Origin: Marsupella aquatica
Lineage: Eukaryota; Plantae; Marchantiophyta
NCBI GenBank assembly: GCA_973895155.1
Contig: OZ316894.1
Coordinates: forward strand, 9,585,440-9,649,439
DNA: 64,000 nt
Direction: 5' to 3'
The notes below the pieces were generated by a model that made no database searches, was not told the DNA's origin, and saw only the letters and a program-made list of their open reading frames with translations. Positions 17,851 to 64,000 of this stretch are shown one piece after another. Each line of letters opens with the position of its first letter. Positions within the stretch are counted from its first letter, which is position 1. The position numbers and the translations under genes were made by a program.

Positions 17851-19687
17851 GCCTCGAGATTGTCTTTCGTGGTGAATTGCGTACTCCACCCCCAGGAAAT
17901 TTAATGGAGGGCTTCAAGTTTTAGTAAGAACCCCCTAATGGGTTCATATGGGAGTATCACATCCCTCCATACCATGATAAACTTTTTTATTTTCTTTAAG
18001 TCAATGACTGCACACCTTAGATTACCACATATTGATGCGTGATTAGGGGCAGGGGGTTTAGCTTTTGGTTCCTTGGCTTTTCTTACCTTGTGCTTTTGTC
18101 CTGGTTCTTTTGGTTTGTGGCTCTTTGTTTTTTCTCCCTTGATTGGGTTTCTTGCCTGAGGGTTTTGTCTCCCGGTTGGGTGGGTGCTCTTTATTTTTTG
18201 GCATATTAGGCAGGGGGGTTCATATGAAAAGAAAAGAAAAAAAGTATTTCCCTCACAACGGGACAAAATTTTCTGTGTCCTGACAGGGTAGTGAACTAGT
18301 GATACTCCTCATGAATACCCCAGTTGACCTGGGTCCAGACTTTAATTAGTTTGAGGTGGCTTTAGTCATTACTGCCCACATGGCAATTTCCGTCCTGTAC
18401 TCCTGTAAGTGTATTGTCTACATGGCAAGGTAAAGTAGGTTTGCCGTCCACACTGAAGAGTTACTTTATAGTGTACTGACACCTTCGTGTGGCTGTTCAC
18501 GATGGTTTGACTATCTACATTATGCCACCCTTCAGAAAAACATAATTGCTTCGCTATCTTATTGTCCATGTCCAAATGACAAACAGGCTTTTCAGTCTAT
18601 ACATTCTGTGCCACGAGTCAGAGAAACATAATGGCGTCCTTATCCTATTGTCGTGTCCAAAACTCCAAATGACAAGGCTTTGGAGAAGGCTGGCTTTTGA
18701 ATCGACACTTTTCTTTACATATATGATATATATGTTAACGTCAATGGTTGGTAGCAATCTTGATTTATTGCCTGGGTCCCACTATTAAATGCAGCCGTAA
18801 TTTATTTATTACGATCCAGTGTATCCCACTCTTGGATATTGGCCTATTGGGGGTCTTTCCAGCTGAAGAAAAACGAGTGATCTCCAAATTTTGTGTGCAA
18901 AGGAAACTTGACTTTTCTGTGTGCAAAAAGGTTTTATAAACTGGCGATGGGGCAAAGGTCGGTGACGTATGAACCATGAGCTAGGACCTTTCTTGCAGCA
19001 CTGCACACACGGCGTCGACTATTAACAAGCAAACTCTGCATTTATGTGCATCCATGCATACAGTAAAAAGCATTCTGAAATGTCTAGACTGCACATATCC
19101 TCATGTCTTGACCTTTTGTGCATCTCCCAATAACGGCTAGCATGGATTAGCTGGTCCCAAAGGACAACAATAAATGAGTTCATGCATTGAATGGCTGGAC
19201 CAATGCAGCAATTAATGAGCTTCTTGTTGGGATACAATCTCCAACTGAATGTCCTCTTCTCCCTCGGGTGATGTTTATGTATAGTATGAAGAGCTACAAT
19301 GTTCCTAACTAGGGTTAGATAAGTAACCCTGGTGACTTAATTATTGTGTCATAACACTTCTCGTTTTCTAGAGTTCTCGTTTCTTAACCCAATCTGGACC
19401 ATTGATGGACGTTTCAATCTCAGATCTGGACCGTTGATAGACCTCAGGGGGTCGATCAAGTAACAAGTTTCATTTTGGGGGTCCATCAAGAAAATACCTC
19501 AGTAAAAACATTTTAAAAAGTCAGGTCCAACCCCACTCTGACTATGGAACTTTATCAGGATTTCAGGAACCAGGTTTTTTTGGTTGCTGAATATGTATCT
19601 GGAAGAGATTATAGAGTGGTTGACTCATTCCTAACTTTGTTGATGGGTGTTCAAGACATGTATATGTAATAAGTTACACACTTCAGT

Positions 19688-32250: not shown

Positions 32251-34214
32251 GCTTTCATCAGAGAGACTATTAGACTATTCCTTGGAAAGTCATTCTCTGA
32301 TCTTGTGTTGCTAGTCTATGTGATGCCCTGTAAAACATGCTCGTTCTCGCCTGCATGCTGCCCTGATGAACCTCAAACTCGTCATTCTCTAAGTGTCAAG
32401 TTGTCTGAACCCCACTAGTTTTTTGATGGGGATGTTCATATAAAAGAGAAGGCTCCAACATAATTCAAACCCGGGACCTCCCACCCCCCACCTCAAGCAC
32501 TCTACCATTATACCAAAGTCTCCTGGAAGAAATTACTAGCCAATTTTTGGTATCTGGATTGTTATCTTTGCACAGGGTTTGGGCATCGGGGTACCGTAGC
32601 CCTGAATAAGGCTTTAATGGGGCGTCTCAAAGCTTCTAAACTATAGATCATGGCATTTGGTTTAAAGGAATGGTCATAACTTTTTGCAAGAATTAAGAAA
32701 AATAAATTTGGTTTTTTTGTTTTGTATACCAACCTCTACGGTAACCAATAGTAATGGGATGAGACCAATCCTTGTGGGTAAAATTTATGGACTATAAAAT
32801 TCATAGACAATAACTTTTGTGTCCATAACCCGTACGTAACTAGGGAGTTAAGGTACATCAAATTGTCAGCATTGAGACTCCCTCATAGAGTTTCAGAACT
32901 TCATAGTTAAGGACAACTTTTGGCCATGAACAAATGGCCATAGCTTTTTCAGAGGTTAGATTATTTACAATTTCCTTTTTATTAGCCCTCTAGAGTGACC
33001 TATGGTCATGGGTGTATGACCAACAAATGGCCATAGATTTTTTACAGGTTAGCTTATATGAACATTTTCCTTTTTTATTTTCCTCTACAGTGACTTGTGG
33101 TCATGGGCATATGACCAGTCTAAAAAGATCATAAATTTGGTACTCCACAACTTTTTCTATCAGGAATAAGCATCAAATTTTGAGGTTTGAGATCCCCTTC
33201 TTTACCTCATTGGCGCTTAGGCATTGTACTGTTATTCTTGGCACTCACTCCTTTCAATCGAACACTACAGTCAACCGTGTAGAAGTGCAATGTGGATAGG
33301 TGCATTCCGGTTAGTTGTAACCGCACATACATAAAAGTGACAATTAATGGGATACTTTGAAGGAACAACACTCACTAATATGAAACAACACAATCAAATT
33401 TTTTTGTGGTCAGGAAGTCTGTTAAATTTGTGGGCACTTGCCATGTAGCACAGTCCACCGTGTGTTGTTACTAACTTGTTTATGTGTAATAACGTATCAT
33501 CAGGAGTGCATTCAGTGGTGGTTACGTGCAGGTTGGCCTTGTGTCAATAGTCTCCTAATGTTAGGGAGTATCCCGTGTAGACCCATCATGCTCTTCTGCA
33601 GGATAGGGCCAGTGCCCGTAATCTGGCCAGGGGGTGAGTTTGACTGGCACAGAGACTTTTCGATGAGGTCCTGATTTGGTCCTATAACATCAAGGCTGCA
33701 TTGGGGGAAACTGCCCATAGGGAAATGGCAAAATCTTGTGACACAAGTCTGAGTACTAGGCTTAGGGAGTGTCACACATTTTTTGGCCGTGTCCCTCCAA
33801 ACCTACTCCCGGACTGCCATGAGACTGCCCACATGCTATATTTTGAGATCTCCCTTTTGAGCCATTTCGTTTGTAAATGCACCAAAAATGCAGATGACAT
33901 TTGTGCAGGTTGACCATCACTAAACTATAAAAGTAGTGCCACTAAAAGGCAAACACATAAGTGAATTCTTTGATAAGTACAATAAGCAAGTACATAAAGT
34001 AGTTTGTATGTACTGATCCTAGTTGAATTTCCAATATGAGGACTCAAGGTATTGAGCCCAATATGTGTGACCAGACAACACAATGAAGAATTGCTTAGGC
34101 TATTTCCCATGACCTTACTGGTAGTACAGACAGTGCAATATGGAGGAAGTGCATAAATGATGTCATGTGCACTTAGTGCATTCTGTGGATGAGTGCTGGC
34201 TGGTCTTGTTTTCC

Positions 34215-39727: not shown

Positions 39728-40118
39728 ACTGGCAGCTTGGCCCACAGGACCAATATTCTGGCACGCTTCCTGGCGTCCGCTTCTCCTGTGTGCAGCGTGC
39801 TTGCTCACTCTACAGACCCAATAATCTGAAATGCTTCCAGACCTCCTCTGCTCCTGCGTGCATCTTTAGCATGGACTTTGAGCTGCGTGGGGTGTAGCTT
39901 TAGCGTGAGTGGGATGCAGCTGTGAGCTTGTAGTGAGCTGAGCCGCTCGGCGCGATCTCCACAACCCACTCGGATCAGACAAGTCTCCGACAGAATAGGT
40001 CGAGTGCGCGGGGGACCCGCAAACTTTGCTTTCAGCCCGCAGTTCTCGCCGTTGGCGCAGCTTGGAGTCAACCAATCTGTCTTGTCTTCTTCTTCCTGAG
40101 ACAAGCTCCGCAAGAGCC

Positions 40119-41507
40119 ATGGCGGAAGAACAGCGAAACGGAGGGGCGAGTCAAGGGCGTCACAACCATGGAGGAGTCCCACCAGTAAGCCTTTACGGGA
40201 AACGTAAGAAAGCACAAGGTATGAAGGTTACAATTTTGCATTCTCTTCCATTGAATGCTGTAACCACACTGCAGCTCAGAAAATCTACTGTTCTCGCCGT
40301 CTTGATCTGTCTATACGTCCTCCTCGTGCATGCTGCTCCCGCTCCCACGGGCGCTACAAGCACAAATGCCATAGTCTCAATTGACTCCCGACTTACATAC
40401 CTTCTACCCGCGGGATTCGTTGGCAACCTCACCCTGAATTTCATCGACACAGTGACCAGCGATGGCACCATCGCGGGATCGTTCTCAGCCGCGAAGAAGG
40501 CACCGTTCATCTCCTACGATCCCGAGTTTCTGCAGATAATCGGCGAAACTCCAAACTCGCCACAGCTCATCGCGCATAGAGACGAGCTCTTCGCCGACGA
40601 GGCAGGCGTTTGGGTCCCGGAAAAGAACCAGGTCTGGTTCACGAGTTTCACGGTGAATGACGCCAGCAATCTCTCGATCCTCGACCTCGGCACGTCGAAG
40701 ATCTTCAGGCCGAACACCAGCATTCCAGTCGTCACTCCAAATGGCGGATACTACTTCGAGGGCAAGGTTTACTTCACCGGCCAAGGCACCACCCCGGTGG
40801 AGCCCTGCATTTACGCCATCGACATCCACACCTATGAGACGACGATTGTCATCAATTCCTACTTCGGTCTCCGCTTCGGGGGTCCCAACGACGTGACCTG
40901 GGCCAGGAGGAAGAGTGGAGATGGTAAGAAGAGCTTCATGTTCTTCACTGATGAACCGGAATCGTATATCTACGCTGGTGGTCTGCCCCCGGTGCTCCCC
41001 AATGCCGTCTGGAGGTATGATCCGCAGGACGAGAGCATTGTCCCTGTCATAAGCCGAGCAGACATCCTCGCCCCGAACGGTGTGGCTGTGAATGCGGATA
41101 GCTCGAAGCTGTATGTGACCGATACGCCATTTGCTAACGTGTATTTGCCCGCCGACACGCCGAGCTCGGGATCCACGGCCATCTTCTCCTTCGACCTCGA
41201 CGACGATGGCTTCCCGGTGAACAAGCGAATGCTCGGGATATCGAGAAGTGGCATTCCAGATGGCATCAAGGTCGACGACGCAGGAAGGATATGGACTGGG
41301 GAGGGCGAAGGGATTGTGGTGCGGAATTCGAGAGGCAAGGTCCTCGGTGTCTTCAACTCCGAGTTCTTTCTGGAGAATTATCAGAATGAACCTGCCATAG
41401 CGAATTTCGCACTTGTCGATGACACGCTCGTTGTGCTGGCTATGCAGAGGGTCTGGACATTGAAGCTGGCCCAGAGGGTCGTTTCTCCTGATAGGTATCG
41501 AATGTGA
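40119..41507 (+). CDS. SMP-30/gluconolactonase/LRE-family beta-propeller hydrolase, probably secreted
   Basis: Motifs EAGVWVP, PNGG, GGPNDV, FFTD, PNGVAVNADSSKLYVTDT, IPDGIKVDDAGRIW and a hydrophobic N-terminal segment. Possible in-frame 90-bp intron 40184-40273; alternative ATG at 40221. Confidence 0.88.
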   Translation: MAEEQRNGGASQGRHNHGGVPPVSLYGKRKKAQGMKVTILHSLPLNAVTTLQLRKSTVLAVLICLYVLLVHAAPAPTGATSTNAIVSIDSRLTYLLPAGFVGNLTLNFIDTVTSDGTIAGSFSAAKKAPFISYDPEFLQIIGETPNSPQLIAHRDELFADEAGVWVPEKNQVWFTSFTVNDASNLSILDLGTSKIFRPNTSIPVVTPNGGYYFEGKVYFTGQGTTPVEPCIYAIDIHTYETTIVINSYFGLRFGGPNDVTWARRKSGDGKKSFMFFTDEPESYIYAGGLPPVLPNAVWRYDPQDESIVPVISRADILAPNGVAVNADSSKLYVTDTPFANVYLPADTPSSGSTAIFSFDLDDDGFPVNKRMLGISRSGIPDGIKVDDAGRIWTGEGEGIVVRNSRGKVLGVFNSEFFLENYQNEPAIANFALVDDTLVVLAMQRVWTLKLAQRVVSPDRYRM

Positions 41508-41544: not shown

Positions 41545-41920
41545 TTTGGAAGATGCATCAATGAATCGTGTTCGGGAGATTTATGTCCAACTTTTGTGGC
41601 AGCAGTCATGATGGACATTTGACCACTCATCCCTCGGTTCCCAACAGATACTTCAATCTGGTGGGTTTGCAAGATGAAATGCATCAATGAATTGTGTTCA
41701 GGAGATTAATGTCCAACTTTTATGGCAGCAGTCATGATGGACAGTTGACCTCCCAATCCCTCATTTCCAATCAGATACTTCAAATTGGTGTGTTTGCAAG
41801 TTAAGATGCATCAATGAATCGTGTTCGGAAGATTAATGTCCAACTTTTATGGCAGCAGCCGTTGATCTCCCAATCCCTCGTTTCCAATCAGATACTTCAA
41901 TTTGGTTGGTTTGCAAGTTC
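41545..41920. repeat. Three-copy ~130-bp tandem repeat downstream of the lactonase
   Basis: ATGCATCAATGAAT.GTGTTC...ATGTCCAACTTTT.TGGCAGCAG...CAGATACTTCAA...TTTGCAAG x3. Confidence 0.85.
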
Positions 41921-42719
41921 TGGGGCTCACAGAGGGAGGGACACAGGGTGCATTCTTCTGGATTTATTGGCACAGGAGGGACTGTCAAAAAGAGGCAGCA
42001 CCTCCTACTGTGGCTCAACTGATAAGACACATCAAAATTTGAGCCTTGACTAGTTGCCAAGAAAGGAAATCATGTGCCAAATCACCGCTTGTAAGGTGAA
42101 TAATGTCTACCAACAAGCGGCATCCATGCAATTTTCGGTATCGGATTGTTGCCATGTAAGGCTATCATTTGCCAAATCAACACTTGAAAGGCCAATCAAA
42201 TGGCGTCCATGCAAACTCCTGTATCTATGTGTTGCCTGTCAAGGAACTCGATCAGACACCAAGTGGCCCCTCGTCTGGTGCATGATGTCTATTATCAGGT
42301 TGGCGTCAGTCCTCTGTATCCACAGTGCCCACGTACAGATTGAGTTTCATCGAAGGGATGATTGGAATTTTCAGCTATACCGCATACTGGAATGATGAAC
42401 TCTTCTGTCTAAAGTGAACGTCCAGACATCCCTCTTTACATAAACAATGTACAGTGAGATCTGGGTGCGAGGAGCAGAAAATTTGAAACCGCTGATCTCG
42501 TCCATACAGGATACCAAATGGTAGAATGCTCGGATTCCACCGGATGTATGATGACCACAGGCTGGCGTACAGTATCCACGGATCCCACGGCAGTAAGAGC
42601 CGTGGACTACCCTGAATGCCCGGTTTAATCTGACGGGCACCTTGACGCCTTGTCGGGCACGTCAAATCGTCAAATGACGGCCCGAAAACACGCAATTTGA
42701 CGTATATTCCTGAAGATTC

Positions 42720-43320
42720 TCCCGAACGAACCCCGACTTCCCCGGACCTTTCGCGAACACCTCCCGAGCACCCCGGACCTGAACCCGAACTCCCCCTGAC
42801 CCGAACCCGGACTCCCGGGCCCTTCCCGGACCCTCCCCGGACCCTCCCGGGCCTTTCCCGAAACCTCGCCGGACCCTCCCCCGAACACTCCCCGGACTCT
42901 CGGGCCTTTCCCGGACCCTCCCCGGACCCCCACCCGAACCCTCCCCGGACCCCCACCCGAACCCTGCCCGGACCCTTCCGGGGCCGGCCGGGGTAAAGGT
43001 GGCCCGGGGGACGGGATTCGGGGAACCGGGGACGGGGGGCATTCGGGGAAGAGGATTCGGGGAACCGGGGAAGGGGGGGCGGGAAAGGGGGGCCGGGATT
43101 CGGGGATTTGGGGAACGGGGTTCGGGGAACGGGGTTTGGGGAACGAGGTAGGGGGTTCGGGGAACGGGGTTTGGGGAACGAGGTAGGGGGTTCGGGGAAG
43201 GGGGTTCGGGTAGGGGGTTCGGGGATGCGGGGAACGGGGTTCGGGGAACGGGGTGCGGGGTTCGGGGAACGGGGTGCGGGGTTCGGGGACGGGGCTCGGG
43301 AATTGGTGGCCGGGGAAGAG
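42720..43320. repeat. Left subterminal GC-rich repeat field
   Basis: C-rich CCCG(A/G)ACC units (42720-42975) switch to G-rich GGGGTTCGGGGAAC units (42980-43320). Confidence 0.85.
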
Positions 43321-43529
43321 TTAGAGGCGGGATTAGGGTTAGGGGCGCGAGATTAGGGTTAAGGGAGGCGCAATTAGGGTTAGGATCAAAGATTAAGAGT
43401 TTTAAGAGAGGATAAGAAGTAGATGATTTAGTATAAGTAGGAATAACTAATTCATTTCACTAATCCAAAGTCTCATTGTGTTTCTCTCTCTTGTGGTTTA
43501 GCATTAGGGAGAGATCGGAGGGATACATT

Positions 43530-43885
43530 GGAACTCTTGTACGCGCATGCTTTGAGCTCGGCTCGGTCTGCGATAATTCGTACGAGAAGTTCCTTATATC
43601 GCCTTAACAACTTTGCATCATTGTTTTGTTTGAAAGTGAACTACTTGCGAGTAAAGAGATACCCATGTGCATATGCTTAGAGCTTTGGCTCGGTCTATGA
43701 CATTTCATATGGGTATCACGATTTCTCATACATATGTTCACTTCAAAGATAAACTATTGTGAAGTTATAGATATTACATAACATAGGTTGAAGTAGGGAT
43801 GTTGACAAATATAAGAATTTGGGAAACTTTCCTGCGCATGCTTTGAGCTTAGGCCCAGTCTGCGATAATTCAGGAAAGTAACCCA
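43530..43885 (+). promoter_or_regulatory. Three tandem conserved stem-loops upstream of the transposase ATG
   Basis: Core CGCATGCTTTGAGC-loop-GCTCGGTCTGCGATA inside different closing stems at 43530-43593, 43658-43717 and 43820-43885, with compensatory substitutions. Confidence 0.75.
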
Positions 43886-43960
43886 TTGTACTATATTTGT
43901 TATATTCACAAAATCAAAAGAATCAACCCTTTTATTTTTTTACCATTGAGAGTCGTAACA

Positions 43961-46863
43961 ATGTCCGATGAAGAGGATTCGCATGAAACTGGATATCATT
44001 CCACTACTCCCAGGCCTGGTCCAACTCGTGTGCAAGAACACCCTTCAAAACAATCTCCAGTGTGGAGATATTTTGAACGATGTGATGCGCCTTCAACATG
44101 TCATGATGTCAATCGTATCTATCGAAGATGCAAGTATTGTTTAACATACGTTACTCATCATGCAACACGAGCAAAGGCGCATTTGATGGGAAACATCCAA
44201 AAAGGGGATGCGCCCCCTTGCATGCAACTCTATGGTGTCGTCGATTTGGATGCCATCAACATTATGTACAATGTGATAAAGGTTCCACCGACCTTAAACT
44301 ACAAACGACGAGATGGAAGTCATATCTTGCGGGATGTGAGAGGTCGTAGGCCAAGCGTTGGAAGTTCATATTCGCAAGCATCCACACGAGGGTCAAACTA
44401 TGTTGACATGGATGATACACATGTAAGGGAAGGAGATAGGCCAGTAAATCTTCCTAACCCAATTATGGATGCCTATCAAATTCCAAATAGAACAAATTTG
44501 GATAAGCTTTGGGCGAAAGCTTTCTACACCAATGGTATTCCATTCAATGTTTCAAATAATCCTTTTTTTCGAGAAGCAGTCATAGAGACTTCAAAAGGGA
44601 TTGTCAATGGTTATTCTCTACCTACGATGCGAAGTTTGCGATTGAAATTATTGGAAGACAGTAAGGAGGATCTCACAAAGGACATGACGCAAACTTTAAA
44701 GGAGGCAAAACCTTATGGGTATTCTCTTTCTTCAGATGGATGGGAAAACGTCCGAAGAGAACCTTTGATGAATGTCATGTTGTTGACTTCTAAAGGTGAC
44801 TTCTTCTTGGATAGTTGGAATGCTGCGCAAGCTGACAAGAAAGATGGGAAATATCTTGGCGACATGTGGTTGAAATACATTGAGGATATTGGTGCAGATC
44901 ATATTATTCAAATTGTAACTGATGGAGCACCCGCAAATCGCGTAGCAGGTTGTGAGGTAGTCATGAAAAAGTATCCTCATGTCACTTGGAGCTGGTGTGC
45001 TGCCCACGTGTTTAATTTGCTGCTAGAGGATATGTGTGGTCACAAGCGTGTAGTGGTAGATGATGTTGGACAGAATCCATTCCAAAAGATTTTTAAACGG
45101 TTGAGGTGGATAGTAAAAGCAGTTTCATCATCGCAAAAGCTTTCTGCAATATTTGCAAGAAAATCTCCTGACAAAAAACTGTTGAATCCAAATGCAACTA
45201 GATTTGCGACCAATTTCCTAATGGCACAAAGAGCGTTGGAGCTAAGAGGAGCTTTACAACAGATGGTCATTGATGATAATTGGCAGTCTTATCGTGATAG
45301 ACTTCCATTGCGACCAAAATCAGCTGGACACATGACGAGGGGAAAGGCAGACGAACTTAAAATGTGGATACAGCAAGATACATTTTGGGTTGAAGTGAAG
45401 GATACAGTTAAATTCTTTACTCTGTTGGTCAAGATGTTGCGAGAATTTGATGGTGATTCTCCGCAATCAGGTTGGTTGTATTGGAGTTTGAAAAGAGGGA
45501 TTGATGTTTTGAAAGCAAGCATGGAGGATTGTCCATTGGTAACAGAGGTATTGAAACCGAAGATACTAAAAGTGTATTTGGATCGAAAAAAATCTCTTAC
45601 CACTGATTTCATGCTAGCGGCAGCATATCTCAATCCCCAAATGTTTTTTGATGAGGACATAGATGTCGCTGGAGATCCAGAACTCTACAGGGTTTCAGTG
45701 AATACATTGCTAGATATTCAGAACAACAGGTGAAGGAGGGGATCAACCATGATCGCGACGTCAGAGAACTTATTTCTGCCATCCACAGTCAAGCCATTGA
45801 CGCCCAAAAAAAAAATCCCAACACATCAATAGCGATGGGAGCCGCCCAATCAAGTATAGGTAATGTCAGTCCAGCAGAGTGGTGGCATGCGTATGGTGCA
45901 GATTATAAACATTTGAGAATCCTGGCGCGAAGAATCTTACACCAAAAAGTGTGCGCATCAGCTTGCGAGCGAAACTGGAGTTCGTATGGATTTATACATT
46001 CCAAAAGTCGCAATCGATTGACAAATGATCGAGCAAAAGATTTGGTGTTTGTATTTACAAACATGAGGGTAGAGAAAGGGCTCACAAATGTTCGAAACCC
46101 GCATACGTTTATATATGAACGTTATGACCAAAGAAGAAGAACAAATGATGGACCTAGACCTATCTCCATGGAGTTGTGCAGCAATGAAGAGTACGATGCA
46201 ACACGTGCGGCTCTTGGTGAAGAAGATGTCGAAGATTATGATACAATTGATGATGCTGATGAATTGCTACACGGATTTTCACTGGATAAGGATAGTGAGT
46301 TCTTGACTCGTATTCCACCAGATACAGACATCACTGCTGCAGAGGAATGGGAGAATGAAATGGATTTGGAGATGTATCCTACAATTGATGAATCGCAAAT
46401 CCAAGACGAGGAAGATGCATCACTGGACAGAAACTTTGTGATGCCTTCCCAACCAAGGTCACCTTGGTCGAACTTTGCGAATGATGTTGACACAAGCAGA
46501 CCATATTTCAACGAGCAACGCACAGGCACAGCAGGGCATCCGACGAATGGAAGGACATCAACCTTTTTTCATGGATACAATCATGAAGGTCAAACTTCAA
46601 ACGACCCACATGCAAACTGGCAACACCATGCAGGTCCACCCTTGAATGCGTATGCAGGGCCAAGTGTCATGAATCCATATACGTCGAACAGGCCTATTGG
46701 CCTTGGTGGGTTTCGAGGAATATCATCATTTCAAGAAACATCGCACAATGTTCAGTCACACAATCGTGATCCACTCAGTTGGGGCGACAAACAAGACGAG
46801 TGGAATGCGCTTTTGTGCAAAAATCTTAACAACAATGCACGAAATTTCTCTTCACAGCCTTGA
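43961..46863 (+). CDS. hAT transposase (BED zinc finger, DUF659-type RNase H core, hAT dimerisation domain), one frameshift
   Basis: BED finger (SPVWRYF..CKYC..KAHL), catalytic D (SDGW), D (VTDGA), CAAH, TRFAT, then WW..YG and CERNWS (E). An apparent 1-bp deletion near 45683-45690 splits it into ORFs 43886-45733 and 45730-46863. Confidence 0.92.
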
Positions 46864-47104
46864 AGCATCTTTTCATTAGGATAATATCAAGTGTTGCTAC
46901 TCTTATATTGTCGTATCTGACATAGACAAAATTATAAACAATTATATTTTTTGTAACATGATTGTATTGTCTTGCAGTGTGTTTATTATTGTACAATGAT
47001 TGAATAATTTATTTGTATTTGCATTTGAGAATGCCATAGAGACACACCAACGCAACATGTTTTCCAAATCTCCAACACTGACTATTTCAAAGTACCTTGT
47101 TGTT

Positions 47105-48430
47105 GGCCATAGCAGCCGTAGTCCATACTAGCCCCCTCCATTAATTGGTTAGTTCATTTCACTATGCGAAGATTTAGTCCAGCAATAGAGCACCGTCATA
47201 TTCAATAATAATGAGGTCGAGAGGACCTCATTATTGGACCTGAGAATGTCATTGCTTGAATAAACCTTCTCGTAATAAAATAAACTTAGTTGAACTTGAA
47301 GTTGTAATGAGGGCCCATTTTTGGGGTGGGTGAATGTCGTTGACCGTAGCAGCTGCACTACTTGAAGTTGGGCAGAGTTTATATGACTATGAGAGAAGTT
47401 GTGAAATGAACACATCGCCTACATAATCAGTAACCTTCTCATAATCATATAAACCCCGTTCAACTTGAAGTTGTAATGAGGGCCCATTGGTGGCCAAGGA
47501 GAGCAATGTCATGATGATGATCAGACACGGTCACGGGGATTCCGCAAGATCGGTCACCAAATTGATATGCAGACGCAAAATACAATCACCAATTTCAAGT
47601 CAAAGTTCACCCGTTTATATCCTCTCCTGTCCGAATTCCAATTCGAGCTTGGACACCCTCTCGTCAGCAGGTCTCCACCCTTTCAGTTGCTCCTCACGCG
47701 AACCTCTGGATTCCTCAAACACTATGAATGATGCATTGAAATAAAATAGGTTCGAGGATTCTAGAGACTGCTATCTTGGTTTGCGTGAAGAGCAACTGCA
47801 ATGGTGGAGACCAGCTGACGAGAGGATGTCCAAGCTCGAATTGGAATTCAGAAAGGAGAGGATATAAACATGCAATTGTGCGAATTAATGTCATAGGCCG
47901 TAGTAGCCGTACTCCAGTAATTGGTCAGTTCATTTCATTATCAGAAGATTTATTCAAGCAACGGAGCACGAACATATTCAATAATAACAAAGTCAGGAGG
48001 ACCTGAAATATTGACCTGAGAGTGCCATTGCTTGAATAAACCTTCTCATAATGAAAAAAACTCTGTTCAACTTCAAGTTCTAATCAGGGCCCATTTTTGG
48101 GGTAGGCAAATGTAGAGGCGTTGGCCTCGGTTTGCATGCGCATGAATGTCATTGGTCGTAGCAGCTACGCTACTTGAAGTTGAACAGAGTTTATTTGAGT
48201 ACGAGAGAAGTTGTGAAACCAACGGATCGATGACATACTCAGTAATTTTTTGCTCGAAGGACCTGAAAATTTGACCTGAGAGTGCATTTGCTTTCAGAAC
48301 TTCTCTCGTACTCAAATAAACTCCGTTCAACTTCAAGTTGTAATGAGGGCCCATTTTTGCGGTGGGCAAAGGAGTAGGCGTTGGCCTCGGTTCGCATGTG
48401 CATGAATGTCATTGGCCGTAGCAGCAATAG
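47105..48430. ncRNA. Cluster of five pre-miRNA-like foldbacks (putative small-RNA precursor array)
   Basis: Arm pairs 47151-47186/47251-47286, 47360-47400/47432-47471, 47613-47704/47778-47869, 47927-47961/48028-48062 and 48172-48222/48288-48338. Four units share a scaffold ending ...AACTT(G/C)AAGTT.TAAT.AGGGCCCATT. Expression is not demonstrated. Confidence 0.65.
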
Positions 48431-48930
48431 CGGAAAAAATTATGAAAGACAGGAAAAGTGAGTGGACTTAGGTATACATCCTTCTACAAAATCATTCTCA
48501 ACTTGGGCGGCTAAAACCATTGCGATGTTGACTTTGTTGAACTCATTGTGCTACACGATCTCCTTTTGGAAATGATTTCAGAGAAGGATCAGTACCTGAG
48601 TCCACTGTGCTACCGTCTCTCATCACGTCTATTTTCCTCATACTTGTCCAAAAATATGATTGTGAGCCCGACAATATGCTTCCAAAACCTATGGCTGATT
48701 GGAGGATGGAATATTCTTACGAAAATACACATTCTCCAAAAGGCGACGCCATGCCCCCAATGAAAAATATATGTACTCATCGAGATATGCAATGTAATGT
48801 CACTCCAAAATCTCTTTACCAATTACAAGTTGAAAATAATTGTCAAAGAGGATATGCCGCTTCTATTTTAACAAAATGTCTCTAATAGTAACTACATGAA
48901 AATAACATCAAAATGTAGAGACTATTGGTT

Positions 48931-50928
48931 TTAGTTCCTTTTGTTGTTATTGTCAACAGCTTCTGTTTTCACCTCTGCCTGTTGTTGACGTCGTCGATGG
49001 CGCTGAATGGATCGTTGCAAATTTTGCTCATCTATTGATGGCTGGTTGGCTGCCGCATATTGTTTCCACTCATCGAGTCGACCACTGAATAACAACCTGT
49101 CAAATTCCCCATCTGACAAATTATATTCATTGATTGTGAAATGTTCAATGGGAGTTTCATCTATTTGCATCGCCGGTATAGTATCTTCAGTCATATCTTC
49201 AGTGTTTTGTTGAGTCTCCATTGATGGCATTTGCTTCAACAATCCTCGTTGCTCATACTCGCGTTCATGAAATGGTGTGCGACACCAACATTTTCGGCTT
49301 TTCTTCAACCATTTAGACAAGCAAGCATGATGCCATATATGACCGCAGGTTCCCAACATGGAAACAGATTCAGGGCCCCAAGGATATAGGCACCAAGTAC
49401 ACTTGTCATCCTTTTCACGAACAAATGCTGCCATAGTTTCATCATTTTTCCACTTATCAAAAAACCTATCAATACCTTCCGCGTCAACCTCCACATCTGG
49501 AAAAAGGTTGCTGTGCCCTGTAGGATCTATGATTTGCATGTTAACAAAATTTGGCGGCGATAATTCACCTTGCCCTTTGTTTGACCTCATCCCCAAAGCA
49601 CCATTGTTAAATTCTTGCACCTCTTCGTGAAGATTTGATATGATGATTGCTTGCATTGCAAGTTCACTTTTAAGATCATTAATGATCTTGTCCTTCTCCT
49701 CAAGTCGTGCCAGTTCATTGCATTGACGCTCTTTTTCAGCAAGTTGTTTTGTCAGCTTATTGATTTCTTCCATCTTGTCAAACAATTGACACTTGTACAA
49801 CATCACTTCCGAATTGGTCGTCGGCTCGTTCTGCTTCTTCTCAAGTGATCTCATCTTTATATCAGCTTGTTGCAATTGTGACTTGAACTTTTCGATGCTG
49901 CCACATTCACATAGCTCCACTACATACTTCGTGCGGAGATTTGTCTCAATCACCTCTGCAACATCTGCCCCCAAGCTCTTGCATATGTTGTGCAGGTTGA
50001 ACTTATCCTTGTTAGCATCAGTAACATTGTTGTTCTTTGCATGTGGAGTTCTACTCCCAACACCTACAAGGATTGGTTTTTTGGTGTGCGTTGACTCCAC
50101 ATTGGTTGGTGGTGCTGCACGGTCAGGCATGGAGACTCGAGGAAGTACAGCCGCTTTCCCCTTCTCATGCGCATATCCCTCCCCAGTGTCATCTAGCTTT
50201 CTTTTGGATCCCTTGTTGGAAGTCTCCATTGAAGGGTCCTTTGCAATAGTTGTATTCCTATTCGTTGCAATCGCAACCACTGATGGATGCACCTGATGAG
50301 TCAGCTTGCCAGCACTGTTTTCCCAACGGTAATCCACCTTCCACTTGAGAATGAATTCAGCAATCAGACATCGGATAAAAGGAGGGTAAACGGAACTCAT
50401 TTTCGTTTGGGCTTTGTGTGGAGCAAACTCTCGATATCGTTGCTGCCAATGTGATTTAACACCTGCATGTGTTACTTTGGACATGGTGAATTTTTCTTGC
50501 GCCCATGATCTTGTTGCCCAAAGATCCGGATCGTGAAAAACTTGTTGTGCTAATGGCCAAAAGTCTTTCTTTGGCATCAACATCTCCAATTCCTTTGCAT
50601 TCATGGCCCATTCGTCATGGGGAGGATTTACATTGGGCGTTAATATACTCCATTCATCCTTCATACCCTCATCTTCCCATCTTCTTGTGTTTGGCGTCGG
50701 TGTTCCATCAACCTTGGGTTTAGCCTCATAGTGAATGCCAATGGTTGTAAGATTATCCAACACATTATTACGAAGAGCTTCATCGTCACAATAGGATCCT
50801 TGACCATCTTGCATGGTAAGATGTTGTGTTGTGAACTCTTTGTCTTCATCATCAGAAGACAATTCCCATCGTCCCATGTTTGCGATGTGTACAAAAGGTC
50901 TGCGATATTTGACAATGTACAAACACAT
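48931..50928 (-). CDS. Transposon cargo: coiled-coil plus RING-H2 protein (putative E3 ubiquitin ligase)
   Basis: Uninterrupted 665-aa ORF (second ATG at 50877), heptad-rich middle region, and CTWC-x14-CGHIWHHAC-x10-CWC ligand pattern. Confidence 0.82.
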   Translation of the reverse strand: MCLYIVKYRRPFVHIANMGRWELSSDDEDKEFTTQHLTMQDGQGSYCDDEALRNNVLDNLTTIGIHYEAKPKVDGTPTPNTRRWEDEGMKDEWSILTPNVNPPHDEWAMNAKELEMLMPKKDFWPLAQQVFHDPDLWATRSWAQEKFTMSKVTHAGVKSHWQQRYREFAPHKAQTKMSSVYPPFIRCLIAEFILKWKVDYRWENSAGKLTHQVHPSVVAIATNRNTTIAKDPSMETSNKGSKRKLDDTGEGYAHEKGKAAVLPRVSMPDRAAPPTNVESTHTKKPILVGVGSRTPHAKNNNVTDANKDKFNLHNICKSLGADVAEVIETNLRTKYVVELCECGSIEKFKSQLQQADIKMRSLEKKQNEPTTNSEVMLYKCQLFDKMEEINKLTKQLAEKERQCNELARLEEKDKIINDLKSELAMQAIIISNLHEEVQEFNNGALGMRSNKGQGELSPPNFVNMQIIDPTGHSNLFPDVEVDAEGIDRFFDKWKNDETMAAFVREKDDKCTWCLYPWGPESVSMLGTCGHIWHHACLSKWLKKSRKCWCRTPFHEREYEQRGLLKQMPSMETQQNTEDMTEDTIPAMQIDETPIEHFTINEYNLSDGEFDRLLFSGRLDEWKQYAAANQPSIDEQNLQRSIQRHRRRQQQAEVKTEAVDNNNKRN

Positions 50929-51064
50929 TTAGCACAATTTTGGGCATTCACGACAAAGTTTGATAGAATATTATCAACAAAATGCAGAACATTGTAATTG
51001 ACATACAATGAATAAACATATAATCGTTAAGGTGACCTTTACAAAATTGTGTAAACCCTAATCT

Positions 51065-52720
51065 CTAATCTCTAAGATATGGACTGTTGTGCAAATGCAA
51101 TGTGCAATCTGGAAACGTTCGAACTATCTTCAAACTCCAAAAAGCACAATCCATTCTTTTCTTGGCATCCGTGGCCATCATTTCACGGATTATGATATCC
51201 AATTTGGGGCCATGCACTTGTGCACTCCAACCCCTCCCCAAAAACCGTGAACCCTTAGACATTCCATCCCAATTCTCTGTCAACAATGTCTCAAAAATAT
51301 TCCCCAAAGCATATATATCGGTACTTTCACTAAACTCGACAGGGGTAGGTTGAACAAGCTCCGGAGCCAACTGTGGAAATTGTTTTTGGTATGTTGCTGC
51401 TTTTTCTGTTGCTGTGGGCCACATCCGATTAGCTGGTAATTTGCACTGTGATTTATGCTTAGACAAGCCAAAATCACATAAACCAACATACACCTTAATA
51501 GCCACATCGTGCTCGTGATCGAAATGAAGAAGGATGTTTCCAAAGTGAAGATCACAATGAAATCGATCATGCTCATGCAAGTATTGCAGTGTCTCCAGCA
51601 AAGCCAAGGCGATTCCCAACCGGTTCTCCAACAAGAGTTTCTTCTCCGAAATAAACTTGAAATCAAGGTCCGTCGTGATCTGTGCCTTCCCCTTGCTCTT
51701 TGACGATATGCCGCACTTATCAATAAAGCTACCCAAGTCACCTCCATTATAGTGATCGTAAATAAGTTTTGGCGGATCCTCAATAGTCAACGCAAGAGCT
51801 CCAACGATTCCCTTATGATTCAGTCCTCCCATAAGCACTTCTTGTAATGCGTCAGTTCGTCTCTTATGCTTGTCTCCATCCTTGAACCGCTTTGCGACTA
51901 AGGTCACGTTGACGGGAATGAGAGGACAATGTAATATACGACAAGTGTATACCTCTCCTTGGATTCCTTTCCCAATGCGACGTGTGTTGTGCACCTGCTC
52001 AGGTTTAAGAAAATGGATACTCCTAACCTCTGGAACTACACGCGATGGACGTGTTCCTTTTCGAGCACTTTTGATGCTGACATCCCCAAAGTGCACAATC
52101 TCGTTAGCATATTTGACATTGCTATCAGATTTTGCCATTGCCAACTCCTTACTCCACTTCACTAGCAATTCTCTCTTGTGTGTGTACATCCCGGGGTTTC
52201 CAAGCAATGTAGTGTCACCCTCTTCCACTTTGGCTGCCAAATTATCCCAAACATGCTTCTCCAAGTTGAGTGCCAAATTTTCCAGAAATCCTCCCGGTTT
52301 CTCAGTTTCATCTTCAAATGACTTCATTTGCTCTCGTGTGAAATTGTCTTCCTTTTGTACACTTTCCCGCATACAACGGGTTATCTCACCAAGAAAGTTT
52401 TTGTATCCTTTCTCTCCGTGTCTTGTGAACTCCCTCTCGAACCCGTCCACCCCATACTGTTTCGGTTGAGTGTAGCGATAAAGTATCTCTTTCCATATCG
52501 ACACTACCACATTGTGTCGAACTTGTTTTGCCTCTTCGTTTGCCCCCTTCCGTTTTCGTTTCCCGGCCACTTTGCTAGAATTCCTAGCATGTTCGAGAGT
52601 GTTTCGAGCGTTCTTCAATGCATCCAGAGCAACAAGATTCGGCTCATATCCCTCATTCACATGTTTTGTGATCATCTCCAACACTTGCCTATACTCTAAA
52701 CTAAAATTTTCGATGACCAT
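51065..52720 (-). CDS. Transposon cargo: protein kinase (TKL-like, non-RD) with N-terminal helical extension
   Basis: Uninterrupted 551-aa ORF with GKGIQG loop, VAK lysine, alphaC Glu, HCDLHFGNIL, DFG, APE and DIYALG. Basic KRKRK patch near the N-terminus. Confidence 0.9.
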   Translation of the reverse strand: MVIENFSLEYRQVLEMITKHVNEGYEPNLVALDALKNARNTLEHARNSSKVAGKRKRKGANEEAKQVRHNVVVSIWKEILYRYTQPKQYGVDGFEREFTRHGEKGYKNFLGEITRCMRESVQKEDNFTREQMKSFEDETEKPGGFLENLALNLEKHVWDNLAAKVEEGDTTLLGNPGMYTHKRELLVKWSKELAMAKSDSNVKYANEIVHFGDVSIKSARKGTRPSRVVPEVRSIHFLKPEQVHNTRRIGKGIQGEVYTCRILHCPLIPVNVTLVAKRFKDGDKHKRRTDALQEVLMGGLNHKGIVGALALTIEDPPKLIYDHYNGGDLGSFIDKCGISSKSKGKAQITTDLDFKFISEKKLLLENRLGIALALLETLQYLHEHDRFHCDLHFGNILLHFDHEHDVAIKVYVGLCDFGLSKHKSQCKLPANRMWPTATEKAATYQKQFPQLAPELVQPTPVEFSESTDIYALGNIFETLLTENWDGMSKGSRFLGRGWSAQVHGPKLDIIIREMMATDAKKRMDCAFWSLKIVRTFPDCTLHLHNSPYLRD

Positions 52721-52933
52721 GTTTTCCCTTCACAAAAGGAATATGTGAGGGAGGAACAAGATCTTACCGGGATTTAAATAAAATCCTTCCAATAAGGATT
52801 CAACGACCAACCTGAAAATTACAAGTCGTATTGTTATTATCTTTTCCCGGTTTATTTCTCCCATGCATTATGTATTTTTATTGCACACATGATTTTAATT
52901 ACCTTTCTATATACAACAATAAAAGAGAAAGAC

Positions 52934-53283
52934 AACACTTGTGAAATATCGCAGACCGAGTGGACGCTCAAAGCATGCGCACAAAAGTGTTCTTTTCTTT
53001 CAAAGTTGTTATATTCCTGCTTCGACATATGTGATTTGGTGTCTATAACTTAACACTCATTTGTATTTCAAGTAAAAACATTCTCGGCGAATCGTGGTAT
53101 CCATGCAAAGTATCGCAGACCGAGCCGAAACTCTAAGCATGCGTACATGGATTCCTCTATCTCCGCAAATGTTTTACTTAATGAACAAAGGAGACTAAAT
53201 TGTTAAGGTGATATTAAGAAATTCTTGTACGGAGTATCGCAAACCGAACCGAGGCTCAAAGCGTGCGCGTACAAGTGTTTCTT
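52934..53283 (-). promoter_or_regulatory. Three tandem conserved stem-loops upstream of the kinase ATG
   Basis: Reverse-complement copies of the same core at 52934-52991, 53096-53155 and 53216-53283, each with its own closing stem. Confidence 0.75.
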
Positions 53284-53411
53284 TATATCCCTCCATTTGG
53301 CTCTAAGGTTAAGGTTTAAAACACAAAAAAAACTTAAAAAATCACAAAACAAAACACAAACAAATAAAAACAAACCAAAAATCAAAAATAAAAACCAAAA
53401 CCAAACACTTA

Positions 53412-54115
53412 CCTCCTCCTCCTCCTCTTCTCTTCCTCCTCCTCCTCCTCTCCTCCTCCTCCTCCTCTCCTCTCCTCTCCTCCTCCTCTTCCTCCTCTCC
53501 TCCTCTCCTCCTTTCTGCAAAACCAAAAATGAGGAGGGAGAGGAGGGATCTCCTCCTTTTATCCTCTCCCGAGCCCCCGACCCTTTCCCGGCCGGCCCCA
53601 TCCTCCAACCCTAAATCGCGAAACCCTAATTCTTCGAGCCTCAATCCCGAACCCCGAACTTCCAAACCCCGAACCGGACCCCGAACCCCGAACCGGACCC
53701 CGAACCCCGATCCCCACCCGGACCCACCCCGGCCTCCCGGACCCGAACCCCACCCGGACCCCACCCCGAACCCCCACCGAGCGCCTCCGCCCCGGGCCCG
53801 GACCCCACCCGAACCCCCCGTACCTCCCGAACCCGAACCCCTCGGACCCGGACCCGAACCCCACCCGGAACCCCACCCGAACCCCCCGCACCTCCTCCTC
53901 CCGGACCCGAGCCGCACCCGGACCCCACCCCGAACCCCCACCGAGCGGACCCGAACCCCACCCGGACCCCACCCCGAGCCCCCACCGAGCGCCTCCGCCC
54001 CGGACCCGGACCCGATTAGTCACCCGGACCCCCACCCGAACCTCCTCCCGAACCTCCTCCCGAACCCGAACCCCGAACCGGACGTTTCCTTTCCCGGACT
54101 GCTTCCGAACCCGGG
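53412..54115. repeat. Right subterminal repeats: (CCT)n tract and C-rich CCCG(A/G)ACCCC units
   Basis: CCT/CT microsatellite at 53412-53510, then dense CCCGAACCCC / CCCGGACCCC repeats at 53570-54115. Confidence 0.85.
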
Positions 54116-54826
54116 TGCCGGGTTGTCAATTTGCCGCTCTCAAACGCCCAGTTTGACGGGCAAGGTCAAACCGGGCCTGAATGCGTGATCTGCACCTCAT
54201 AAAGGAGAAGGATCATATAAAACATCCATTGTTTGTAAATAGAAGCCTCTCAAGAAATAACAGGCTTGTGTGGGCGAAAAGGAGAGCAAGTTATAGCAGA
54301 GAGACAAGGGATAGATGTATGCTGTGGAAATCCTATTGATTCCAATGAGCATCGGAGAAATTGTTCTCTGTATGCACGGAGTAGAAGTTTTGAGCCACAG
54401 CACTGAGGAACACCAAACTGTGAGGCACATGCTGTCGAATCTGAATAAACGCATTTAACAAAGTGCAGAATATACTGTAGCTTTGTAACGGCAAAGGAAG
54501 GGTTCAGAAGGAAAGTCATACAAATGTGAGTACTAAAGCCTTAAATTTTGGCAAAAGGAGAGCAATGGAGAGCTTTCAATGACGTGTCAAACAGTGTGCG
54601 ATCTACGCTTTCTGCAAATATATTCAATTGTTAAAAACTCCACTCATGCACTTTAGTGTTGGAAGCTTGGTTACACTATCAGGTGAAATACCTCACATGC
54701 ATCAGTCAGCTAGTGAGTCTACAGTAGTTTTAATGATTGTAGTACCGTAGAATAGTTGGAGACCATATCATGGAATTTCTTCTAATTTATGGATACAAGT
54801 TTGCTGCGAAAGTGGAGCACAAGATT

Positions 54827-54995
54827 TTGGCAGAGTGAGATGGCGTACGAAGGAACTTTGTTGAGTCGTGCTGGGCAAACTCTTGGCAGAGTGAGATGGC
54901 GTACAAAGGAACTTTGTTGAGTCGTGCTTGGCAAACTCTTGGCAGATTGAGATGGCTTACATAGGAACTTTGTTGAGTCGTCCTGGGCAAACTCC
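54827..54995. repeat. Three-copy ~56-bp tandem repeat
   Basis: TTGGCAGA.TGAGATGGC.TAC..AGGAACTTTGTTGAGTCGT.CT.GGCAAACTC x3. Confidence 0.85.
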
Positions 54996-57937: not shown

Positions 57938-58286
57938 GCAAATTCGCTTTAGTCGAAGAAGTGGATGCTATTTTGACGAAGGCAGCAAACTTAAAAACAT
58001 GTCCTGTATACACTTTTCCCAGTTACCCGTTTTCCTGCATCCTATATACATCAAGACAAATTCGCTTTAGTCGAAGAAGTGGTGATTTTGAAGAAGGCAG
58101 CAAACTTGAAACATGTCCTGTATACACTTTCTCAGTGACCCGTTTTCCTGCATCCTATATACATCAAGACAAATTCGCTTTAGTCGAAGAAGTGGTGCAA
58201 TTTTGAAGAAGGCAGCAAACTTGAAACATGTCCTGTGTACACTATTCCCAGTGACCCTTTTTCCTGCATCCTATATTCATCAAGAC
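57938..58286. repeat. Three-copy ~120-bp tandem repeat upstream of RCCR
   Basis: CAAATTCGCTTTAGTCGAAGAAGTGG...GAAGGCAGCAAACTT.AAACATGTCCTGT...CCTGCATCCTATAT.CATCAAGAC x3. Confidence 0.88.
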
Positions 58287-59995
58287 TAGGCTTAATTAAG
58301 CCTACTTTGGGGTCTACAACTCTGTTAACTATGCACCATGACAAACTTCGGAAGTATCACATCGATGGAAGGGATCGTCTACTCTACGAGATCTGCATGC
58401 GAACCTCAAAATTCACGAGTGTTCAGAACGATATCAGCGCACGTAGCTGACTCATGGAACAAAAAGGTTTACATTCAGTACGTAATTTCCCACAGTATCG
58501 AAACGGTGGTCAACCAATCCAGGTTGCAAAACCAGAAATGCTCACGAAGGAATCGCAATATTTCGTGGTTGGTTCTTGATCACTTCTCACAGACATCCAC
58601 TTCCAACCGCCAGCTCCGCGGAGAAAAGATCAGTTGGAAAAGAGTGGTATGTAGTAACCGGTTGAGAGATTTGTTCATTTTTCGGTGACTTTCAGCAAAA
58701 TTTTGCAAGTCAGGTTTAAAAGTACCAGACACGGTATGCTACATTCCTTCTCAGCTGAAGCACCAGCATAGCTATGGTAGGGCGGAGTGTGTACTGTGGC
58801 CCTTCAGTACATTATCAGACTGGACGAACTGAAAACTTGATTAGAGTCGAGACATTGAAATGAGAGCAAGCCGAGGATTCGGACTCTGCTGTGATTCTGG
58901 GCGAAAATTAAGTTCCTCAATCTAGATAACGGTCCCAATCACTGTGACACCAGACACCCTGTTCATTCGTTTTCGCCAGCCTCCATTGTTCTACTTGTGT
59001 CTCTTTCATGCGGTTCCTACATCTCCTCCAAAAATGCCAAGTCTATTACTTCAGAACAATACATTGTAGGACCTCACGTTCCATCCAAATTGCTATCAGG
59101 GCAGGATGCAAGCCTTTTAACCAGAATATGCGTTCCTGTTTCAATTGACTGCCTCAGACAAGTACCAGCGATTCCAAAACAAATGACGCCTCACAACTTT
59201 GCCCCTTCATTCATGGCCTATAGAAAATAATCTGCATCCATTTTGTGGAGATCTCAATCAGTTCCTCCCACTCCAAGCACCCGTGGTAGCAAATTGCTGA
59301 CATTTGCCCAGACCTATCTCCCATACTGACAGATCAAAATACTTTAATGAGAGCTTCTTTTCTCCATTTGACTGAAAAATGTTAGAAAGAATTCAGTCAA
59401 ATAGCACCCCACGCACAGCAAGTTTCCCCTGGCGGAAGTACATGAAGTGTGCCATTTCGATCTCCTCTCATCCTCCGAGTGCACAGGATCTATGCCATAA
59501 AATTGAGCTCCATCTACAGACTCTGCTCTATGCCATAAATGTGTTCCAATGCAATTAGAAACACATTTCACCACGTCACAGTACCCTTGGACAGAGAAGT
59601 GGCCACCACATCTGTTAGTTGTGAACCTCTTAGCATATTTATCCGTCAGATTCTCACCAGTCGGCGACTTCAGGAGCAAGCCACTGTAAATGTTTAAATT
59701 CCAAGGATGAATTTATTCTCATAATTCCACAGTAATGACCATGAACAATTTGCTTCTTCATTCCATTCCTAAGATTAAAAGGGGTAGATACAAGGAGCTC
59801 ACTTTCCGATTCCAGATAGAATCAGCTGCCCAATTTAAACACAAAAGTATCTCCTCCAGCAGGAATTTTGCTGACAGCCTACACAGGGATGCGATGTCTT
59901 TCAAGTTCAAAAGAGGTAGCAGCAGGGATGTCCATCGCAAATGAAGACGGTAGCAAAAGCGGAACTTTTGCACTTTTGACAATCTAATTCCATAA

Positions 59996-62785: not shown

Positions 62786-63639
62786 CTCTGTTACCTCAAC
62801 GATCCGCCTTTTTGCTTCACAAACTCCCGAGCGAAGTTAGGACTCCCCCTAACAAAATTGTTGTCCGTCCGTCCGCAGGCAGAAATCGCATGGGACAAGG
62901 GGAAAAACCGGGCAAGGAGAAAAACCCTAATGTTTTCAGTTGCCTATTAAACCATAATAACGCGAGTCCAGATTGCCCCAGAGACGGTCAGTCAAGTGAC
63001 CTGCAGGAGCCATCATTGCCGAAATTTTAGCACGCAAAATTGAAGATCACTGGATGCTCAAAAAGCACGTGCACAGACAGTGTTCATAAAGCCAATATTT
63101 CCGTGCTGAGCCTTGGAAAAATGCCTGACCCAAACGTAGTGGCGAGCGAAAACGAGACAGCGCGTTAGTAGAGCTCAGATTTCTTTGCCCGGGAGCTTGA
63201 GACAATGCTTCGACCTAATTGCAAACGACTTAAATGAACGAGACAAGACTGTTCATAGTTTAGAGCAAAAGATTGCTGCACAGAGCTTGGACAAATTGCT
63301 TCAACCTAACCCACTGTGGTTGCGAACGAATTCACGAATCGAGCATGCTTCGACCTAATTGCGACCGGCTTGAGTGAGCGAGACAGAGCATATATTTCTT
63401 CAAACCAAAAATTGCTGCGCAAAGCTCTGAAGAAGCGCTTCAATCTCACCTCCTGTGATTGCGAACGAATTGGCGAATTGGCGAATTGGCGAATCGAACG
63501 AGCGCTCTGCTCGCAAAGAAGGAGCGCGAGAACGAGAGAGAGCACGACGAGAAACGCAACACTACTGCACCAAAACAACAATAGCAACGAGAGAAAACGC
63601 TACTGCACTATCAAATGCGTTCGCTCCACTTCTTCGCCT

Positions 63640-63915
63640 CCTCCTCGCAGGACCTCTCTCGGACGGTTTACGTGTATACGTGCTCAGTTCGCCCCCTCCT
63701 TCCCAGATAGTACACTAGTTACAAACGAAACGTCTCCTCCTCGCACGACCTCTCTGGGACGCTTTACGTGAATACGTGCTCAGTTCGTCCCCTCCTGCCC
63801 AGATAGTACATTAGTCACAAAAGAATCGTGTCCTTGTCGAAGGACCTCTCTCGGACGGTTTACGTGTATACGTGCTCAGTTCGTCCCCTCCTGCCCAGAT
63901 AGTACACTAGTTACA
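63640..63915. repeat. Three-copy ~95-bp tandem repeat upstream of RPT2
   Basis: GACCTCTCT.GGACG.TTTACGTG.ATACGTGCTCAGTTCG.CCCCTCCT.CCCAGATAGTACA.TAGT.ACAA x3. Confidence 0.88.
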
Positions 63916-64000
63916 ATAGAAGGCACGAAAGTTGTGTCATGCCTTTCATTATTTTTCTTTGGAATTTTCTCAGATGGTTTTAAACTAGGGTCATATTCCA

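Follow-up and report, generated by a model that had tools for sequence, protein, structure and literature searches.

Plants have few known structured cis-regulatory RNAs. A 2025 screen of 130 plant genomes identified 16 candidates, with a mean of 0.625 significantly covarying pairs each, and the accessible part of its text mentions neither transposons nor liverworts (PMC12218528). The plant motifs DEAD, 45ABC and GRP7&8 are structured RNAs near splice sites that are proposed or shown to be bound by protein and to steer exon use (PMC12218528). Likewise P5SM, in the plant TFIIIA pre-mRNA, is a structured RNA by splice sites that binds protein and steers the use of its own exon, L5 binding driving exon skipping (PMC3378873). 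For plant hAT elements, the structured RNAs that we found described are 3' ENEs; these ENE and dENE structures, which include that of the rice hAT element TWIFB1, are conserved (PMC13541005). The maize DNA transposon MuDR has two convergent genes driven from both ends, which are alternatively spliced (PMC3440606). The arginine sandwich motif of HIV-1 and HIV-2 TAR and of 7SK has a pyrimidine bulge with an invariant U below a G-C and an A-U pair (PMC6189040), and the tandem hairpins that HIV-2 TAR forms in a 5' leader have dinucleotide bulges, UU and UA (PMC1474061). The features named are those shared, or proposed to be shared, with the locus described here.

This locus lies in a 64,000-nt stretch of DNA from Marsupella aquatica, the whole of which is referred to as the window, and consists of two cassettes of three hairpins within an hAT transposon. 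We put a probability of about 0.5 on the reading that the hairpins are an array of RNA docking sites for a protein and that both genes are co-regulated through it, by way of splicing or translation of the leader exon.

A single hAT element contains both cassettes

All six hairpins are contained in one hAT element of 11.6 kb (42619-54175), flanked by an 8-bp target-site duplication (CCTGAATG, 42611-42618 and 54176-54183). Together with this duplication, short terminal inverted repeats (CCCGGTTT, 42619-42626, and the same sequence on the minus strand at 54168-54175) and a transposase with a C-terminal dimerisation domain assign the element to the hAT group. The possibility of two separate hAT elements was ruled out by the single target duplication and the gene content, so one transposon holds all six copies. 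GC-rich subterminal repeats lie inside the termini, of CCCGAACC type and in both orientations at the left end (42720-43320) and at 53640-54090 at the right; the left repeats flip from C-rich to G-rich near 42980, and the right ones keep a single orientation. Further in there are TAGGGTT motifs, three on the plus strand at 43334-43381 and two on the minus strand at 53607-53628, which we take to be telo-box-like, promoter-type elements.

The transposase (43961-46863, plus strand) occupies two frames with a frameshift near 45690, and its domain matches (DUF659, E 2e-30; Dimer_Tnp_hAT, E 6e-11) are spread over both. It converges with a protein kinase gene (551 aa, 51065-52720, minus strand) and then a gene for a RING-finger/coiled-coil protein (648 aa, 48931-50877, minus strand). 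For both the transposase and the RING protein, the nearest named homologues belong to Calypogeia fissa, which makes a leafy liverwort the likely host. The kinase gene is intact, retains the HCD and DFG motifs and has eight intact-looking homologues at 48-73% identity; diverged homologues exist for the RING/coiled-coil gene as they do for the kinase gene. A helical N-terminal region of the kinase has no assigned family. Structure models were weak (pLDDT 51 and 38), and fold searches matched kinase domains only, the N-terminal region lying outside the matches. Between the kinase and RING genes there are a telo-box-like motif (51060) and acceptor-like sites (51037 and 50900).

A separate cluster of four related long hairpins is found between the convergent genes (47140-48350), together with a 92-bp inverted repeat of 91% identity (47613-47869, z -20.8). 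The four hairpins fold equally well or better on the minus strand, match nothing else in the window and gave sub-threshold Rfam matches only; they look like pre-miRNA-type or foldback hairpins within the hAT element.

Outside the element, a coding-like sequence occurs twice in the window in inverted orientation, at 6965-7672 and 20563-21687; these copies lie some 13 kb from each other and have diverged (71-82%), and two frames tested at 20464-21659 gave no Pfam match. There is a weak reverse-transcriptase match at 19673-20329, and short inverted repeats of tRNA-like wording at 16061-16745, 17668-17709 and 32468-32509 are possibly SINE or MITE ends. Host gene fragments resemble SMP-30/gluconolactonase (39999-41507, plus strand) and a leucine-rich repeat protein (13132-13761, minus strand). 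Short tandem arrays are present at 41553-41897 (126-nt unit), 54820-54994 (56 nt), 57971-58313 (114 nt) and 63634-63921 (96 nt).

Six hairpins share a fixed head on a variable stem

The sequence-only reading of this DNA had described three hairpins ahead of the transposase and implied six copies in all. The three are present on the plus strand: L1 (43535-43587, with its core at 43544-43572, a 6-nt bulge at 43573-43578 and a lower stem extending to approximately 43518-43601), L2 (43658-43717) and L3 (43826-43879). The remaining copies are on the minus strand: R1 (53275-53224), R2 (53152-53099) and R3 (52985-52938). The description of the motif as lying upstream of the transposase is correct for the left set and too narrow for the motif as a whole, since the right set precedes the convergent kinase gene, with the RING gene downstream of it. 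The left cassette (L1-L3, 43535-43879) and the right cassette (R1-R3, 53275-52938) are homologous hairpin for hairpin, spacers included, with 72% identity over 359 nt, which is the best-kept long match between the two ends of the element.

In each hairpin a stem of free sequence, in which pairing is kept, carries a fixed head of about 36 nt. The head is made up, in order, of four base pairs (CRYA/URYG), a pyrimidine mismatch (U-C), the pairs G-U, C-G and U-G, a U-N bulge, a GAGC/GCUC stem and the loop, and has a 6-nt AYAHUY bulge on its 3' side. The lower stem (P1) is variable, with 6-12 contiguous pairs. Loops are 3-4 nt long and different in all six copies; R2 has UUCG, from which most of the others differ by one or two changes. 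L2, which sits atop a long irregular stem, has CAUA/UAUG and a UA bulge; R2 shares the UA bulge, and L3 has U-A in place of U-G. It had been claimed that P1 arms differ between copies and yet pair, that the second copy carries the CAUA/UAUG double change and that the third converts U-G to U-A, and each of these is found in the sequence. An A-C mismatch in the top stem of L3, absent from most related copies, and a C-A closing pair in R3 had been overlooked.

Both cassettes are unusually stable (z -5.7 for the left, -4.6 for the right), no shuffled sequence being equally so. A pattern derived from the six copies matched six times in the window and never in 100 shuffles; as it was fitted to these copies, this shows only that the window has no further ones. 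A covariance model of the six, which the sequence-only reading had proposed, scored them at 73-80 bits and nothing else in the window above 15 bits.

Pairing is under selection in both cassettes

In the alignment of the six copies 96.7% of cells are paired, and 11 of 20 pairs show a double change, a level reached in 0 of 500 shuffles. Nine of these 11 pairs sit in P1, where copies 1, 2 and 3 may have separate stems and not homologous columns, and within the head only two pairs change on both sides, both in one single copy. Because so much of the signal came from a possibly non-homologous lower stem, a stricter cross-cassette test was run, in which one cassette was folded alone, pairs with a probability above 0.9 were kept, and the other cassette was scored against them. 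When the left fold was placed on the right cassette, 45 of 69 pairs were the same, 6 were kept with a one-sided change, 10 had changed on both sides, 6 were broken and 2 gapped. Random placement of the same 33 substitutions gave on average 1.95 double changes (at most 7 in 20000 trials) and 18.7 broken pairs, and none of the 20000 was as extreme. The reciprocal test, with 73 pairs, found 9 double changes against 2.3 expected (p 0.0001) and 11 broken pairs against 21.8 (p 0.0007). The heads are more conserved than the remainder of the cassette (75/90 versus 184/276, p 0.002), and this extends to their unpaired positions. We conclude that the hairpins are a real, selected RNA structure, and that the evidence for pairing is unusually clear for a plant motif.

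Related copies, which cover the stretch wholly or partly, were found in seven public sequencing runs from four organisms; only contigs at least 80% alike were compared, which favours conserved heads. Runs X1, X3 and X5 (from organisms A, B and C) have contigs that span the cassette, in many variant copies, and in run X6 coverage is limited to 3 of 30 bins, which fall in the transposase. Head variants among the rows listed (40 of 174) comprise a loop change at 43684, a bulge change at 43701 and 43855 C>T, the last of which restores the A-U pair missing in L3. In a second alignment, listed for the centre of the stretch, X2, X3 and X7 share a G>A change at 43692 by which U-G becomes U-A, and the other changes listed affect the loop, its closing pair or the 6-nt bulge. 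One X7 copy combines a UG bulge with A-U for the first G-U and U-A for U-G; in an X5 copy (record 21) the lower stem is new and its pairing is kept, the arms being matched by record coordinates. Two changes, 43874 G>C and 43589 G>C, would each break a pair unless the partner co-changes, the partner positions not being among the 40 of 174 rows listed, and the loop-closing pair is opened in one X2 contig.

The hairpins probably act as RNA

On the gene-sense strand the alignment contains 17 G-U cells and 2 A-C cells, which points to sense-strand RNA. The same core was recovered in all six copies with RNA folding parameters and in about three of six with DNA parameters, and the complement of each cassette is less stable than the sense strand by 12-13 kcal/mol; taken singly, L3 and R1 fold slightly better in antisense. 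The double changes, the G-U bias and the folds under RNA parameters bear out the earlier preference for a single-stranded structure over a plain double-stranded binding site, and it is likely that the hairpins fold as RNA in the 5' leaders of two convergent transcription units.

These data also weigh on the foremost of the alternatives, in itself unlikely, which is that the cassettes are a remnant of a long terminal duplication with a role in transposition, their hairpins being recognised in single-stranded DNA or end-derived RNA by the transposase or a helper when the ends pair. The cassettes are inverted and start 916 nt (left) and 900 nt (right) from their element ends, and this near-equal spacing fits an end-related role equally well; the long end-to-end match also speaks for it. 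However, simple duplication of one end also explains the spacing, and the one-strand excess of G-U, the UUCG-type loop and the poor fold with DNA parameters favour RNA. Moreover, hAT transposases bind GC-rich subterminal repeats, and repeats of that kind are already present.

Both cassettes would be transcribed in 5' leaders

Splice sites were predicted by scoring with an approximate matrix. Just before the left cassette a branch-point-like CTAAT, a pyrimidine tract and an acceptor-like AG (43501) are predicted at 43457-43501 on the plus strand (99th percentile with this matrix). The right cassette is preceded on the minus strand by a predicted U-rich intron (53303-53412; donor 53412, acceptor 53333 or 53303), of which the donor is the window's only AG/GTAAGT; the U tract in this leader is 73% U. 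An acceptor-like site is therefore predicted ahead of each cassette. As an alternative reading of the left leader, a TATA-like TATAAATA in a relative, about 90 nt ahead of the cassette, would put the start of transcription near 43460. On either reading both cassettes would be in 5' leader RNA, a position from which a cis-regulatory role is plausible.

Past the right cassette there are a predicted 91-nt intron (52812-52902, minus strand; donor 52902, acceptor 52812) and a strong predicted acceptor at 52907, and on these predictions the cassette could be skipped or included as an exon of about 400 nt. No donor inside the element was scored for the left leader, and the same approximate matrix found only weak GAG acceptors after the cassette, so exon skipping suits the right leader better than the left. 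By the standard of P5SM, whose exon is bounded by splice sites and reduces expression when included, the right cassette has a predicted acceptor and donor and the left an acceptor only, as scored with the approximate matrix. The left cassette appears, on prediction, to share an exon with the transposase start.

Each cassette region has eight upstream AUGs. A minimal upstream reading frame (AUG-CUU-UGA, in L1, L3 and R3) was considered and rejected, as the frame continues in L2 and R2, R1 carries ACG, and the AUG is missing from the X7 variant; none of the 35 homologous proteins searched had a translated leader.

Since a fixed head stands on a stem of free sequence, in three copies and in both leaders, the hairpins are best read as an array of docking sites through which one factor would serve both units; a recognition site mounted on a scaffold would be expected to combine head and stem in this way. 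The sequence itself shows the copies, their positions, the pair-keeping changes and the strand bias; transcription, splice-site use, protein binding and a direction of control are inferred, as follows. The cassettes would fold in the 5' leader RNAs of both convergent units, and a protein would dock on the hairpin heads, three copies per leader perhaps giving avidity or a threshold. The bound protein would then decide, in the manner of L5 on P5SM, whether the AUG-rich leader exon is spliced out or translated through. Splicing and translation were chosen as the level of control because an included cassette loads the mRNA with upstream AUGs and stable stems. The binder itself is slightly more likely to be encoded by the element than to come from the host.

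The same logic of a bound protein could instead act at another step of RNA metabolism, namely nuclear export, localisation, stabilisation, or internal ribosome entry or shunting past the upstream AUGs. This second alternative, which we consider doubtful, draws on the long irregular stems under the heads and on the number of upstream AUGs, which together would block scanning, as well as on the exon that the left cassette seemingly shares with the transposase start; it leaves the splice sites flanking the right cassette unexplained.

Candidate binders and the resemblance to TAR

No RNA-binding domain was assigned in any protein of the element, nor did atlas searches yield a named lead. Basic sequence is present in the kinase, as a conserved patch that we take to be a nuclear localisation signal, and in the RING protein, as the arginine-rich stretch RSIQRHRRRQ.

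Such proteins would be the partners in a third alternative, that a plant DNA transposon has evolved a circuit like that of Tat and TAR; we regard it as improbable. The U-N bulge under GA/UC would form a U.A-U triple and bind an arginine-rich protein of the element on nascent RNA, the kinase by its helical, basic N-terminal region or else the RING protein, and a recruited kinase (a host CDK or the element's own) would switch on both units by elongation or by escape from silencing. The sequence precondition for the triple, as defined for TAR (PMC6189040), is present in full or nearly so: the U that opens the bulge and the G-C pair directly over it are invariant (6/6 each), and the A-U pair stands in 5/6. 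Most relatives have the missing A-U pair restored, and at the second bulge position U and A occur, with G in X7. TAR itself uses U23.A27-U38 and G26 (PMC6189040), and the tandem hairpins of HIV-2 TAR have UU and UA bulges (PMC1474061). Against this, the match amounts to a 4-bp stem and one U and may be due to chance, and the remaining parts of the head, among them the 6-nt bulge, are equally conserved and have no counterpart in TAR. The arginine-rich stretch is missing from both homologues of the RING protein, which end earlier or differ there, and the kinase patch presumably serves nuclear import. The conserved apical loop of TAR has a cyclin T1 role, and the loop of the present hairpins is variable. 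Where TAR has a Watson-Crick sandwich pair before the bulge, five of six copies here have a U-G wobble and one has U-A; where its apical loop is a conserved 6 nt (PMC1474061), the loops here are 3-4 nt and all six differ. With a wobble under the bulge and an unconserved loop, the hairpin is not a TAR, although it may still bind like one. Such a circuit, if true, would amount to RNA-tethered, self-amplifying control or escape from silencing.

Far less probable is a role as transposon-encoded, miRNA-like small-RNA precursors. Long imperfect stems below each head, and the separate cluster of long hairpins in the element, would suit such precursors. Plant miRNA precursors have a conserved 21-nt duplex without large asymmetric bulges, whereas the conserved part here is proximal to the loop and spans asymmetric bulges of 2 nt and 6 nt, and the long stems, where any mature duplex would lie, are the variable part.

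Equally remote is the absence of any function. Template switching, able to yield paired changes without selection, or conversion would then have kept the arms of duplicated quasi-palindromes complementary, in a copy whose transposase is frameshifted and which has private mismatches. Repair of this sort, however, would remove G-U pairs, both bulges and the U-C mismatch, and it is these features that vary least among the copies; unpaired head positions are conserved too.

Database searches and comparison with known systems

None of the heads matched Rfam 15 (ribozymes, snoRNAs, SECIS, IRE, riboswitches and miRNAs) at E values up to 10, in agreement with the view that the motif is outside the known Rfam families; three sub-threshold matches of 10-18 bits touched the spacer or the L3 stem only. 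Pattern scans returned 50 matches (0 and 2 in viral collections, 39 in JGI metagenomes, 9 in GTDB), none of which is a true copy. The full 4-bp P2 was present in 0 of the 48 JGI and GTDB matches and in 6/6 window copies, both viral matches were without the lower head, and the best covariance-model score among pattern matches was 21 bits, against 73-80 for the window copies. The scanned collections are poor in plant DNA, so that these results are no evidence of absence from plants. Protein-based locus scans of viral contigs found nothing. The head sequence is not in the one supplement file of the plant screen that was available, nor is the motif among the motif names seen for that screen (PMC12218528), and no published description of it was found in the literature searched, a limited coverage with subscription papers mostly outside.

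Compared with TAR and 7SK, the hairpins have an added conserved lower head and the 6-nt bulge, belong to a plant DNA transposon and match no Rfam family. The ENEs capture poly(A) with U-rich internal loops and are situated behind the transposase gene (PMC13541005), whereas the present hairpins lie 5' of the genes and have no U-rich loop. MuDR is a Mutator element with long conserved terminal inverted repeats, for which no structured leader array is noted in the text available (PMC3440606); here the element is an hAT transposon whose second unit carries a kinase and a RING gene. P5SM is a 5S rRNA mimic in a poison exon within the TFIIIA coding region (PMC3378873), whereas these hairpins have no likeness to 5S rRNA, accompany transposase and kinase genes and stand in a mobile element, in the 5' leader, three copies per leader.

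A repeated motif with strong covariation, present in both leaders of an hAT element that carries kinase and RING genes, points to a cut-and-paste transposon with a control circuit at the RNA level. The motif is small, modular and directly testable and, if its binder is encoded by the element, the two would be a plant-native RNA-protein pair and a possible tethering tool. The motif itself is new; structured cis elements in leaders are a kind already known.
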